Source: Escherichia phage vB_EcoM_G2133. From it: 64,000 nucleotides of DNA. How positions within the stretch are numbered: the first letter of the stretch is position 1; every line of letters begins with the position of its first letter. Under the pieces are notes generated by a model, which worked only from the letters and a program-made list of their open reading frames with translations, ran no database searches and was not told where the DNA came from. Position numbers and translations under genes: made by a program. The stretch is taken from the sequence record MK327928.1. One strand, given 5' to 3'. Positions 38,158 to 39,270 of the stretch are shown piece by piece.

Positions 38158-38229
38158 TGGCCCTGGGTGGAATTGAACCACCATCTGGCGATTATGAGTC
38201 GCTTGCTTGAACCTTCCAGCTACAGGGCC
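38158..38229 (-). tRNA. tRNA with anticodon CAU (Ile-type if modified, otherwise Met)
   Basis: Manual fold: acceptor GGCCCTG/CAGGGCC, anticodon loop CTCATAA, T-arm GGTTCAATTCC; CCA not encoded. Confidence 0.75.
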
Positions 38230-38235
38230 TTGATA

Positions 38236-38308
38236 TGCTGATTGACGGAATCGAACCGCCGACGTCCTCATTACAAGTGAGGTGCTCTACCTACTGAGCT
38301 AAATCAGC
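38236..38308 (-). tRNA. tRNA-Thr (UGU)
   Basis: Acceptor GCTGATT/AATCAGC, anticodon loop CTTGTAA, T-arm GGTTCGATTCC. Confidence 0.85.
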
Positions 38309-38315
38309 GAAATTA

Positions 38316-38402
38316 CGGAGGCGATAGGATTTGAACCTATGAGTCGCCGGAGCGACTGCCGGTTTTCAAGACCGGTGCATTAAACCACTCTGCCACGCCT
38401 CC
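38316..38402 (-). tRNA. tRNA-Ser (UGA), long variable arm
   Basis: Acceptor GGAGGCG/CGCCTCC, anticodon loop CTTGAAA, T-arm GGTTCAAATCC. Confidence 0.85.
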
Positions 38403-38404
38403 AG

Positions 38405-38478
38405 TCTCCATACAAGGATTTGAACCTTGGACCTCCTGATCCCAAATCAGGCGCTCTACCAAACTGAGCTACACGGAG
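38405..38478 (-). tRNA. tRNA-Pro (UGG)
   Basis: Anticodon loop TTTGGGA, T-arm GGTTCAAATCC; directly abuts tRNA-Ser as a dimeric precursor. Confidence 0.85.
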
Positions 38479-38491
38479 TAAATTAAATTTG

Positions 38492-38562
38492 AGCGGATAA
38501 TGAGAATCGAACTCACATCATCAGATTGGAAGTCTGAGGTAATGCCATTATACGATATCCGC
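38492..38562 (-). tRNA. tRNA-Gly (UCC)
   Basis: Acceptor GCGGATA/TATCCGC, anticodon loop CTTCCAA, T-arm GGTTCGATTCT. Confidence 0.85.
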
Positions 38563-38568
38563 AAACTT

Positions 38569-38655
38569 TGGTACGAGAAGTGGGACTCGAACCCACAAGG
38601 AAATCATTCCGCAGCATTTTAAGTGCTGTGCCTTTACCAATTTGACTATTCTCGC
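38569..38655 (-). tRNA. tRNA-Leu (UAA), long variable arm, CCA encoded
   Basis: Acceptor GCGAGAA/TTCTCGT, anticodon loop CTTAAAA, T-arm GGTTCGAGTCC, 3' ACCA. Confidence 0.85.
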
Positions 38656-38661
38656 TCTATA

Positions 38662-39270
38662 TTATTTATTACGTGAAAAAGATTGTTCTATCAATTCTGG
38701 ACACTTTCGTTCTATCCATTTTCTAGCTTTTTGTGGGCTTATACCTATTATTTTAGCAGCTTTACTAACCCATCCAAATTTAGAATAATCGATTTTAACT
38801 AATTCTTCGTAAATTTCATCAGTTAAAATCTTTTCATTAATATTTACCAGTAAATGATATAATTTATTATCATTAGCAATTTTAATGAATCTTTTATAGT
38901 TTCCGCCTTTACTTAAACCTAATGAAGTAATTGCAGATGATATAGTAGCCGAATTTAATAATGCGTTTAAAATTTCTTCATCACTAACATTATAACGCTT
39001 TTTATTATTTTTAATATTTTTACCAGCAAAAGTATCAGTTTGCGAATGGCAATTTGGACATAATAATCTTAAATTTGATTTAAGATGATTTTTATTATTT
39101 CCATCAATATGGTCTAATTGCAGAACAATATGCTTATTTTGCCATTTTGAAATTTTACAAATTGCACACTCATATGGAAAAATATTTTCTTTTATTATTT
39201 TGTCTTTCAGCTTTCCTGTACTAAAATTTGGATGTTTTCCTTCAAAAATTTCAGCTAATTTAGTATCCAT
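38662..39270 (-). CDS. HNH endonuclease with C-terminal helix-turn-helix-like domain, adjacent to the tRNA array
   Basis: Start at the ATG at 39270; CAIC...LQLDHIDGNNKNHLKSNLRLLCPNCH HNH and zinc-finger motif. Confidence 0.65.
   Translation of the reverse strand: MDTKLAEIFEGKHPNFSTGKLKDKIIKENIFPYECAICKISKWQNKHIVLQLDHIDGNNKNHLKSNLRLLCPNCHSQTDTFAGKNIKNNKKRYNVSDEEILNALLNSATISSAITSLGLSKGGNYKRFIKIANDNKLYHLLVNINEKILTDEIYEELVKIDYSKFGWVSKAAKIIGISPQKARKWIERKCPELIEQSFSRNK

Follow-up and report, generated by a model that had tools for sequence, protein, structure and literature searches.

In phage T4, the tRNA operon opens with the gene for tRNA-Gln. In Escherichia phage vB_EcoM_G2133, an open reading frame for an HNH endonuclease lies at this position, which raises the question of how a nuclease gene came to occupy the place of a tRNA gene and how it is maintained there. 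We addressed this question in a 64-kb stretch of the genome (MK327928.1), called the window below, which is of Tequatrovirus origin. ARAGORN, run on the whole window, and Rfam agree on seven tRNA genes, all on the minus strand. With their neighbors, given in minus-strand order, they form the following operon.

39381..39668, minus strand: trna.2 homolog, 95 aa, the final ORF ahead of the tRNA operon (near-identical T4 alignment)
38662..39270, minus strand: HNH endonuclease gene, 202 aa (profile matches, AlphaFold2 model, Foldseek)
38655-38569, minus strand: tRNA-Leu(UAA), starting 6 nt past the HNH stop codon, CCA encoded (ARAGORN, Rfam, alignment)
38562-38491, minus strand: tRNA-Gly(UCC), 3' CAA, without CCA (ARAGORN, Rfam)
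38478-38404, minus strand: tRNA-Pro(UGG), without CCA (ARAGORN, Rfam)
38403-38315, minus strand: tRNA-Ser(UGA), without CCA (ARAGORN, Rfam)
38308-38236, minus strand: tRNA-Thr(UGU), without CCA (ARAGORN, Rfam)
38229-38158, minus strand: CAU tRNA of the T2 type, without CCA (ARAGORN, Rfam)
38116-37451, minus strand: segB, GIY-YIG homing endonuclease, 221 aa, between the CAU tRNA and tRNA-Arg (ORF list, profile match)
37447-37372, minus strand: tRNA-Arg(UCU), CCA encoded, an allele that differs from T4 tRNA-Arg (ARAGORN, Rfam)
about 37370-37249 and about 37242-37105, minus strand: homologs of the T4 stable RNAs rnaD and rnaC, respectively (approximate coordinates)
37055-37032, minus strand: intrinsic-terminator-like hairpin past the rnaC homolog (terminator scan)

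A preliminary description of the locus had listed Leu, Gly, Pro, Ser, Thr and CAU tRNAs followed by segB and tRNA-Arg, and ARAGORN, Rfam and the ORF list together recover this array. The order in T4 (NC_000866) is trna.2, Gln, Leu, Gly, Pro, Ser, Thr, Ile, segB, Arg, rnaD and rnaC. The window operon keeps this T4-type order on one strand, except that Gln is replaced and that CAU and Arg are non-T4 alleles. The likeness to T4 that had been described holds for the gene order but not strictly for the distal part of the array. The CAU tRNA has 47 positions identical to T4 tRNA-Ile and equals the T2 'Met' gene except for the 3' CCA, and the tRNA-Arg has just 50 positions in common with its T4 counterpart. 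SegB is identical to T4 SegB at 185 of 221 residues, and the region of the rnaD and rnaC homologs has 93.5% identity to T4 rnaD plus rnaC. A further ARAGORN call, a 94-nt 'tRNA-Lys' at 37198-37105, was rejected: it lies inside the rnaC homolog, has no Rfam support, and is not called by ARAGORN in T4 or close relatives.

It had also been claimed that only two tRNAs encode the 3' CCA. Direct reading of the 3' ends bears this out, with CCA present in Leu (..TCTCGT-A-CCA) and Arg (..CCTCG-A-CCA) only. In T4, Gly and Thr encode CCA as well as Leu and Arg, which makes the window count lower by two. The low count is partly a feature of the lineage (CCA changed to CAA in Gly and lost in Thr) and not simply the T4 state.

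The reported lack of a tRNA-Gln likewise withstood scrutiny. ARAGORN and Rfam find none in the 64-kb window, and blastn-short searches of the window with three tRNA-Gln alleles give chance matches of 10-14 nt only. T-even tRNA-Gln genes occur as two alleles with sharply different anticodon stems. As for codon usage, 72% of the Gln codons in the window's long ORFs are CAA.

The ORF at the expected tRNA-Gln position (39270-38662) does encode a 202-aa HNH protein, as proposed. The gene is also foreign to the T4 array: T4 (NC_000866) has no HNH gene at this site and no copy of the window gene, and is absent among the tblastn matches listed (best 60 of 252). The protein consists of an N-terminal beta-beta-alpha-metal HNH domain with a CxxC...CxxC zinc site, followed by two C-terminal helical HTH-like modules. 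The HNH motif reads LQLDH54IDGNNKNHLKSN66LRLLCPNCH75. In an alignment of 50 homologs, C35, C38, H54, N66, C71, C74 and H75 are invariant, and this set includes all four residues of the zinc site (C35, C38, C71 and C74). Two PHROG HNH families are matched, phrog_14736 at E 5e-124 and another at 2.5e-29. The score against Pfam HNH (PF01844) is 17.3 bits, under the 21.4-bit cutoff. Among eight close family members, seven reach E <= 0.01 against PF01844 (best E 1.4e-6), so the score of the window protein is read as a marginal match to a short 47-position model, with the domain present.

The AlphaFold2 model of the protein has a pLDDT of 91. Strands 51-54 and 67-70 and helix 72-75 are modeled with pLDDT >94, and residues 97-201 form two helical bundles that are also confident. 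Using Foldseek, viral HNH endonucleases were matched with E values down to 8e-10, and solved structures gave no significant match. Weak PDB hits, all below significance, involve HTH folds of the homeodomain, POU and sigma region 4 types. An 8-sequence alignment includes one homolog with a Pfam HTH family match, and precomputed HTH families are on record for P0023. An alternative TTG start at 39294, which would give a 210-aa ORF, was rejected in favor of the ATG at 39270 because all homologs and database annotations start at ATG.

The following features precede or contain this gene.

39353..39377, minus strand: predicted MotA-type middle promoter (read by eye against the T4 middle-promoter consensus)
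39275..39283, minus strand: remnant of tRNA-Gln, nt 1-9, TGGGAATTA (alignments to T4, T2 and G2540-3)
39274-38656, minus strand: 619-bp insert, almost wholly the HNH ORF, between tRNA-Gln nt 9 and tRNA-Leu nt 1

The window matches T4 across trna.2 and the intergenic region and up to nt 9 of tRNA-Gln. This 9-nt remnant of tRNA-Gln adjoins the HNH start codon on its upstream side. The insert takes the place of tRNA-Gln from nt 10 to about nt 71-73, plus the 1-nt spacer between Gln and Leu. The distance from the anchor to tRNA-Leu is 619 nt in nine HNH loci, 628 nt in KarlGJung and 65-66 nt in six Gln loci, and all ten HNH loci that were read have identical junctions. Some HNH copies also keep the last AG of tRNA-Gln and the spacer C. 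The remnant position that matches U8 of the tRNA is C in seven of the ten HNH loci, whereas it is T in all six Gln loci, which indicates that the tRNA constraint has been lost. The preliminary description had called the replacement of a tRNA gene plausible. The 9-nt remnant ahead of the HNH start and the end of the insert exactly at tRNA-Leu nt 1 both support it, as does the mutual exclusion of tRNA-Gln and HNH in all inspectable records.

The GGGA of the remnant, 8 nt upstream of the ATG, is probably the ribosome-binding site of the HNH gene. Further upstream, the predicted promoter consists of a MotA box (TGCTTTA, 39377-39371), a 12-nt spacer and a -10 element (TATTAT, 39358-39353). The promoter sequence does not differ between T4, G2540-3 and the HNH-carrying loci. 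MotA-type middle promoters fall outside the scope of the sigma-70 scan. Judging from its sequence and position, this promoter probably drives the HNH gene together with the tRNAs. The sequences preceding the ATG are alike in the window (ATAATTGGGAATTA) and in the metagenomic locus L021 (ATTAAAGGGGAGTT). This likeness could be microhomology from the original illegitimate recombination, although the sequences are short.

The same replacement is found widely among relatives. Among about 595 phage records surveyed in the GenBank collection, 63 have the HNH gene at the Gln position and about 532 have Gln only. An IMG/VR scan with the HNH protein gave no confirmed relative, and a trna.2 scan gave 7 loci only. 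The 63 HNH records belong to at least seven Tequatrovirus species (ICTV) and at least four array types, and have mosaic flanks, with both flanks common to all 63. Downstream of HNH, the arrays read Thr-CAU-segB-Arg, Thr-Met-Tyr-Asn-His-Arg, Thr-Met-Tyr-Asn-Arg or Thr-Met-Tyr-segB-Arg. Upstream, most loci have trna.2, and ES12 and phiD1 have a different ORF of the same type as in T2 and L008. Even a single species can be polymorphic: in pyps2t, KarlGJung carries the HNH gene and PYPS2T carries Gln. No tRNA-Gln is present in any of the 60 inspectable HNH-carrying records; each of the 60 listed has a single matching place, so there is no Gln elsewhere in these. In the sampled HNH-less relatives, the site spans 446-447 bp, made up of both flanks plus Gln, and an empty site with neither Gln nor HNH was not found among them.

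Sequence variation separates the insert from its surroundings. The HNH protein is 98-100% identical across the 63 records, and the ORF is intact in all ten copies read. Among these ten loci, the mean pairwise DNA identity is 98.6% in the insert versus 76-78% in the upstream ORFs, and the variable HNH codons comprise 17 with synonymous changes only and 7 with amino-acid changes. No flanking SNPs are linked to the insert among the aligned loci. The window tRNA-Leu carries two changes, G9A and C72U, which were considered as HNH-linked immunity or co-conversion markers and rejected. G9A is seen in the window alone; C72U is found in the HNH-less G2540-3 and L006 and is missing from most HNH loci. 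One ancestral event placed the 619-bp cassette between tRNA-Gln nt 9 and tRNA-Leu nt 1, and the HNH allele is now carried by about 10% of the Tequatrovirus-like genomes sequenced, which differ in species, array type and flanks.

Residence in tRNA arrays extends to more distant members of the family, for which 5,510 homologs are on record. All full-length homologs whose context was read (T5 hegA and the metagenomic L021-L029) are wedged within phage tRNA arrays. One, at 68% identity, is syntenic in another T4-like phage (L021), and a 41%-identical homolog is found in L028 and L029. In L021 and in L028/L029, the HNH gene starts 14-39 nt past an intact tRNA-Gln(UUG); this adjacency comprises three contexts, which are perhaps not independent. 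In L021, the more distant T4-like phage, the tRNA-Gln is also at the syntenic site. Other homologs adjoin tRNA-Lys, tRNA-Ser or tRNA-Ile. The HNH stop codon lies 0-7 nt from the next tRNA or overlaps it in the window, L024, L027 and L028. A GCGAGA after the HNH stop in L021 was considered as a 5' remnant of tRNA-Leu and dropped, since it also aligns with the 5' end of an rnaD-like RNA.

The best explanation of this locus, and in our judgment a likely one, is that the body of tRNA-Gln, at the promoter-proximal end of the T-even operon, gave way to a free-standing HNH homing-endonuclease gene, and that this gene belongs to a lineage resident in tRNA arrays that is distantly related to T5 F-TflIV (hegA). 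We infer that the replacement was the work of the endonuclease, as the preliminary description had suggested, and that the enzyme also mediates its own spread. The HNH gene would be co-transcribed with the tRNAs from the upstream MotA-type middle promoter, with a predicted start about 7 nt past TATTAT, and the GGGA in the tRNA-Gln remnant would serve its translation. RNase P, by cutting where tRNA-Leu begins, 6 nt past the stop codon, would then separate the HNH mRNA from the tRNAs and leave an mRNA 3' end at 38656. In a mixed infection, the enzyme would nick or cut the DNA of an HNH-less relative in or beside the tRNA-Gln gene. Recombinational repair using the HNH-carrying genome would copy the HNH gene in and delete tRNA-Gln. 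If the target lies within tRNA-Gln nt 10 to about 71, the carrier genome would be immune because it no longer has this sequence. The loss of tRNA-Gln could be tolerated because the host presumably supplies tRNA-Gln(UUG).

The presence/absence polymorphism at a fixed site with conserved flanks is the pattern of free-standing homing endonuclease genes. For nuclease-dependent, super-Mendelian inheritance, the only signs are indirect ones, namely the mosaic flanks and the higher conservation of the insert than of the upstream ORFs. Since T-even phages recombine frequently, mosaic flanks alone do not prove homing. Further points count against homing. Homing endonucleases usually avoid gene destruction, but the HNH gene of the window replaces a gene. 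In addition, purifying selection on the HNH protein would also be expected of a useful domesticated gene. The sub-cutoff Pfam score, the absence of a significant match among solved structures, and the small number of contexts with HNH beside tRNA-Gln, when other homologs adjoin other tRNAs, weigh on the same side. A bolder version, which we regard as doubtful, is that the HNH lineage homes specifically to tRNA-Gln(UUG) genes, with the tRNA gene as the DNA target, across Tequatrovirus, another T4-like genus and a metagenomic phage contig (JGI/ENA), and that the target was erased in Tequatrovirus. If this version were true, homing endonucleases would directly drive the loss and turnover of tRNA genes in phage arrays, and the two anticodon-stem alleles of T-even tRNA-Gln could be target-site escape variants.

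Other readings take the same data differently. The nuclease may be domesticated or beneficial, kept because the phage profits from breaks at or close to tRNA genes, with the loss of tRNA-Gln being incidental. The benefit could be exclusion of co-infecting relatives, or recombination and segmental amplification of the array as an anti-defence locus, of the kind recently reported for SegB. The 98-100% conservation of the protein, the intact copies, the excess of synonymous variation and the consistent residence of the family in tRNA arrays all agree with such a role. Carriage by only about 10% of relatives and polymorphism within a species, however, are the pattern of a selfish element, and there is no sign of amplification or of an interaction with defence. 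We therefore consider this reading unlikely as the main explanation; it is compatible with homing. The gene might instead be a passive passenger that arrived by one illegitimate recombination, is now inactive on relatives, and has spread by ordinary T-even homologous recombination and drift. The flanks of the region are indeed mosaic even in genomes without the HNH gene, and T4 itself keeps defunct endonuclease genes such as I-TevIII (PMC2790892). This is difficult to reconcile with ten intact ORFs out of ten and invariant catalytic and zinc-binding residues, and the 17 synonymous-only versus 7 amino-acid-changing codons argue for selection on the protein. A neutral gene that costs a tRNA would be expected to decay or vanish, and a passive spread is in our view quite improbable.

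The direction of the change could also be reversed, with the HNH arrangement being ancestral and tRNA-Gln a later insertion in the T4 lineage. Nothing speaks for this beyond the two-state polymorphism, which by itself gives no direction, and the remnant effectively refutes it. The HNH allele keeps the first 9 nt of tRNA-Gln and sometimes its last AG and the spacer C, and the U8 position is constrained only in Gln-carrying genomes. Moreover, Gln is the majority state (532 versus 63 records) and is present at the syntenic site in L021.

Under the preferred explanation of a homing HNH gene, the locus is a real but fairly ordinary case of a phage tRNA cluster remodeled by a mobile nuclease gene, as the same replacement is found in about one in ten sequenced relatives. 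The HNH gene is probably a small selfish one. Phage tRNA arrays are increasingly viewed as counter-defence loci that replace host tRNAs cut by abortive-infection nucleases, and SegB reportedly reshapes and amplifies the tRNA array. A second, unrelated endonuclease in the array, with one tRNA gene deleted in about one in ten T4-like phages, would be a case of selfish nucleases deciding phage tRNA content. Nothing is overturned: T-even and T5 phages are already well known to carry free-standing HNH and GIY-YIG endonuclease genes that affect how the tRNA region is inherited. The candidate target spans 65 bp, and both carriers of the HNH gene (BASEL KarlGJung, teqhad) and non-carriers (T4, T2) are standard laboratory strains. 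Our literature search found no description of this HNH gene or of a Gln-less T-even array; the ACG-C40 genome paper gives only a count of 10 tRNAs.

Among the matches listed, the nearest characterized relative is F-TflIV of T5, the product of hegA (tblastn, 34.7% identity over residues 16-184, or 84% of the protein, E 5e-15). The two proteins have in common the HNH core and a C-terminal HTH-like motif, W..(K/R)ASK..G(I/L). Like the window gene, hegA lies inside a tRNA array, directly after tRNA-Ile2. F-TflIV differs in having an extra N-terminal region of about 55 aa with a LuxR-type HTH, in its neighboring tRNA and in its family, Demerecviridae, and the identity is too low for target specificity to be transferred. 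According to Akulenko et al. (2004), as cited in PMC2330249, F-TflI and F-TflII neighbor F-TflIV in the T5 tRNA gene region. These T5 endonuclease genes are located within the tRNA cluster, and their expression may be down-regulated when the tRNAs are processed from the transcript (PMC2330249).

T4 SegB offers a parallel in the same operon and a precedent for homing there. It is also encoded by a free-standing endonuclease gene wedged between tRNAs, with its stop codon within a few nt of the next tRNA. SegB homing alters the tRNA gene content of the recipient, and T4 x T2L crosses replace markers of the T2L tRNA region (PMC2330249). Its DNA target is a tRNA-gene sequence, the T-psi-C motif (PMC2330249). 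The two enzymes have no sequence relationship and differ in fold (GIY-YIG versus HNH). SegB sits between genes, whereas the window HNH gene occupies the place of a tRNA gene. The activity and homing of SegB have been demonstrated; for the HNH protein, we infer cleavage and homing from its context.

The HNH homing enzymes of T-even phages (T4 MobA-E, Hef and I-TevIII) resemble the window protein in combining an HNH nuclease domain with a DNA-binding region, a putative one in the window protein, and in their sporadic presence among T-even phages. Where free-standing endonuclease genes have a promoter of their own, it is of the middle or late class and never of the early class (PMC2988022). MobE and enzymes of the I-HmuI type nick DNA and do not cut both strands (PMC2988022, PMC2790892). 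The window HNH gene, which is not filed as a Mob, sits in the tRNA operon, where no Mob gene is known.

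The tRNA region of the window is 92-98% identical to hundreds of Tequatrovirus (T4-like) genomes, and its minus-strand order (gene 1, 57A, 57B, internal-protein genes, trna.4/.3/.2, the tRNA operon and the e.x genes) is identical in T4. ARAGORN, run on all 64 kb, and Rfam concordantly call seven minus-strand tRNAs:

38655-38569, minus strand, tRNA-Leu(UAA)
38562-38491, minus strand, tRNA-Gly(UCC)
38478-38404, minus strand, tRNA-Pro(UGG)
38403-38315, minus strand, tRNA-Ser(UGA)
38308-38236, minus strand, tRNA-Thr(UGU)
38229-38158, minus strand, CAU tRNA
37447-37372, minus strand, tRNA-Arg(UCU)

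The segB gene, a 221-aa GIY-YIG ORF, lies between the CAU tRNA and tRNA-Arg. In T4 (NC_000866), the order is trna.2, Gln, Leu, Gly, Pro, Ser, Thr, Ile, segB, Arg, rnaD, and rnaC. The preliminary description had listed this tRNA set, with segB before Arg, and had reported the lack of tRNA-Gln, an HNH gene foreign to the T4 array, and encoded CCA in Leu and Arg only. All of these factual statements hold. The tRNA set matches the ARAGORN, Rfam and ORF calls. Neither program calls a tRNA-Gln anywhere in the 64 kb, and blastn-short with three tRNA-Gln alleles gave only chance matches of 10-14 nt in the window. The T4 annotation places tRNA-Gln at the array head and contains no HNH gene in the array. 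An additional 94-nt ARAGORN call, "tRNA-Lys(UUU)" (37198-37105, minus strand), is not a tRNA but falls within the counterpart of rnaC, a stable RNA of T4; Rfam does not call it, and ARAGORN makes no such call in T4 and close relatives. The sequence that follows tRNA-Arg shares 93.5% identity with T4 rnaD and rnaC, and the 3' part of the rnaC homolog carries a tRNA-like T arm (CCGGGTTCGAATCCCGG).

Alignment of the window with G2540-3, a close relative without HNH, and with T4 and T2 defined the junctions of the HNH gene. Collinearity holds to the end of trna.2, across the intergenic region (97 nt) and into tRNA-Gln, of which the first nine nucleotides (TGGGAATTA, 39283-39275) are kept. The genomes diverge after this remnant at TATT-ATG, the start of the HNH ORF, and homology returns exactly at nucleotide 1 of tRNA-Leu (GCGAGAA, 38655). 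The insert of 619 bp (39274-38656) comprises 4 nt, the ORF with its stop codon (609 nt), and a further 6 nt. It replaces 65 nt present in T4: Gln nucleotides 10-73 plus one spacer base. The right junction reads ATAGC|GCGAG in some HNH copies versus CCCAGC|GCGAG in T4; judging from this likeness, those copies may also keep the spacer C and the final AG of Gln as remnants. Position 8 of tRNAs is a universally conserved U. At this site, T is present in all six Gln-carrying loci, whereas C is present in seven of ten HNH-carrying loci, a pattern as expected of a dead tRNA-Gln remnant. The remnant and its relaxed position 8 make the direction clear: tRNA-Gln was there first, and an ancestral HNH state is refuted by the presence of the remnant in the HNH allele. 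The replacement of a tRNA gene, which had been proposed as plausible, is thus borne out by the remnant upstream and the resumption of homology at tRNA-Leu.

The HNH gene is found in 63 of 50,697 phage records at ≥95% DNA identity, with one copy per genome. All carriers are T4-like phages of Escherichia, Shigella, Salmonella or Yersinia, and they represent at least seven ICTV species; the species pyps2t is polymorphic, with HNH in KarlGJung and Gln in PYPS2T. A 1,001-nt query across both junctions was at least 80% covered in all 63 records. A composite query of HNH and tRNA-Gln matched 595 records; 63 carry HNH and the other 532 carry Gln alone. In the 60 HNH records listed, the query matched at one place each, so none of them carries a Gln gene elsewhere. 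HNH-less relatives sampled across the ranking showed a span of 446-447 bp, equal to the two flanks plus Gln, with an additional upstream ORF in those of T2 type; no empty site, with neither Gln nor HNH, was seen among them.

Ten HNH loci were read at the nucleotide level (the window, BYEP01, ES12, ACG-C40, slur03, Pu-Krd-SF5, JEP6, phiD1, KarlGJung, and PD112). The junctions are identical in all ten, and their surroundings vary. After Leu-Gly-Pro-Ser-Thr, four array types occur: CAU-segB-Arg, Met-Tyr-Asn-His-Arg, Met-Tyr-Asn-Arg, and Met-Tyr-segB-Arg. The upstream ORF is mostly trna.2, with another ORF, of the kind in T2 and the relative L008, in ES12 and phiD1. No flanking SNP travels with the insert in the aligned loci. 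Mean identity is 98.6% in the insert versus 76-78% in the upstream ORFs. The ORF is intact in all ten loci, with an in-frame 9-nt duplication in KarlGJung; 17 variable codons are synonymous only and 7 change an amino acid. Protein identity in the full set of 63 records is 98-100%. Shared junctions, varied surroundings and a conserved intact ORF indicate that the insert arose once and spread through different backgrounds, and that selection acts on the protein. A passive, inactive passenger is disfavoured, since the ORFs are intact and constrained.

The host's own tRNA-Gln(UUG) presumably makes the loss of the phage gene tolerable, even though CAA accounts for 357 of the 496 Gln codons in long ORFs of the window. 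T-even tRNA-Gln(UUG) genes themselves fall into two sharply different alleles, that of T4 (positions 4459-4531 of its locus; ~135 records) and the RB3 type of G2540-3 (3257-3330; ~343 records). The whole 5-bp anticodon stem is swapped with full compensation (TAGCA/TGCTA vs CTGGA/TCCAG), C gives way to T at loop positions 32 and 38, and the remainder is identical. The split may be a trace of escape, either from a host nuclease that targets tRNAs or from an endonuclease target site in the DNA.

Direct reading of the 3' ends gave encoded CCA in two of seven tRNAs in the window versus four of eight in T4 (Leu, Gly, Thr, and Arg), so more of the window array depends on the host CCA-adding enzyme. 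In tRNA-Gly (38491-38494), the T4 CCA has become CAA, as also in G2540-3, in the HNH carrier BYEP01 and in L006, a relative without HNH; in tRNA-Thr (38233-38236), it is replaced by TAT. The CAU tRNA (38158-38229) and tRNA-Arg (37372-37447) are non-T4 alleles, with 47 and 50 positions identical to T4 tRNA-Ile and tRNA-Arg, respectively. The former is the T2 "Met(CAT)" gene, identical save for the CCA that T2 encodes, and SegB is identical to that of T4 at 185 of 221 residues. This makes the distal half of the array a T2-type/T4-type mosaic. In tRNA-Leu, G9A (38647) is unique to the window among 13 relatives aligned, and C72U (38573), giving a G1-U72 first pair, is common to G2540-3, BYEP01 and L006; neither is linked to the HNH gene in that alignment.

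The sequence context suggests how the HNH gene could be expressed. A predicted MotA-dependent middle promoter, a good match to the T4 type and identical in sequence in T4, directly follows trna.2:

39377-39371, minus strand, MotA box TGCTTTA, followed by a 12-nt spacer
39358-39353, minus strand, -10 element TATTAT

The sole Shine-Dalgarno-like element is GGGA in the Gln remnant, 8 nt upstream of the ATG. Because the stop codon is 6 nt from tRNA-Leu, RNase P processing of this tRNA would set the 3' end of the HNH mRNA. The segB gene is packed equally tightly against the next tRNA, and this packing has been discussed as a limit on expression (PMC2330249). In T2-type phages, a 171-aa ORF of unknown function (T2, 2846-3361 of its locus; also in ES12, L008, and phiD1) lies directly upstream of tRNA-Gln or the HNH gene and stands in for the 3' part of trna.2, which marks the operon head as a gene-exchange hotspot on both sides of the promoter.

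The protein matches PHROG 14736 ("HNH endonuclease", E 5e-124) and other HNH PHROGs. Its Pfam HNH score is 17.3 bits, under the 21.4 cutoff; at E ≤ 0.01, the model picks up seven of eight close relatives (best E 1.4e-6). C35, C38, H54, N66, C71, C74, and H75, invariant in a 50-sequence alignment, make up the HNH motif together with a zinc site of the CxxC...CxxC type. In an AlphaFold2 model (pLDDT 91), a beta-hairpin-plus-helix core (51-75) is followed by two helical modules (97-143 and 151-201). Foldseek matches viral HNH and homing endonucleases, with E down to 8e-10. A PDB search gave no significant match; weak ones were to HNH nucleases in the N-terminal part and, in the C-terminal part, to HTH folds of the homeodomain or sigma region 4.

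The family is large, with 5,510 matches among 5.8 billion proteins, a few of them full-length relatives. All contexts examined are phage tRNA arrays, and tRNA-Gln or a remnant lies immediately upstream in 3 of about 7. P0002 (68% identical) occupies the syntenic place in another T4-like phage, 14 nt after an intact tRNA-Gln(UUG); its context runs gp2, an unannotated 202-aa ORF (presumably gp3), gp1, an unannotated 77-aa ORF (presumably 57A), 57B, and on to a trna.2-like ORF. On the metagenomic T4-like contig L021, which carries the 68%-identical homolog, ~190 nt (3640-3830) of non-coding, G+C-richer and apparently structured sequence lie between the conserved MotA-type promoter and the first tRNA. 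P0003 and P0004 (58%) are at the head of large tRNA arrays in further T4-like contigs, and P0023 (41%) is flanked by tRNA-Gln(UUG), 39 nt ahead of its start, and by tRNA-Asp, 6 nt beyond its end. The stop codons of P0007 and P0008 (42-45%) overlap tRNA-Lys(UUU). In the metagenomic contexts L024 (3094-3103) and L027 (3049-3058), the HNH stop codon is inside the 5' end of this tRNA, so RNase P processing would strip it from the mRNA; the same situation at segB/tRNA-Arg has been discussed (PMC2330249).

The data show that tRNA-Gln was replaced in a single event, that the new allele spread, and that its protein was maintained. They are best read as a free-standing HNH homing endonuclease, from a lineage that resides in tRNA arrays, in place of tRNA-Gln. 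Also compatible with the data, and not in conflict with homing, is a domesticated nuclease of use to the phage, which could exclude competitors or act through array recombination or amplification in the manner of SegB (PMC13096335). RefSeq records already label the gene "HNH endonuclease" or "homing endonuclease", and free-standing endonuclease genes are classically at home in T-even phages (PMC2988022). We found no paper on this gene, on the tRNA-Gln replacement, or on the relatives' tRNA-array habit beyond T5. The HNH gene is uncharacterised and offers a tidy, easily testable case rather than a surprise. By analogy with SegB of the same operon and the T5 F-Tfl enzymes, the putative homing endonuclease would cleave a target in or beside tRNA-Gln, its own genome would be immune through target loss, and the allele would spread by break repair. 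In SegB homing from T4 to T2L, tRNA-region markers of T2L are replaced and a tRNA-gene motif is recognised (PMC2330249). The closest characterised relative among the matches listed is T5 hegA, encoding the H-N-H endonuclease F-TflIV (34.7% identity over 84% of the protein), which lies in the T5 tRNA region directly after tRNA-Ile2.
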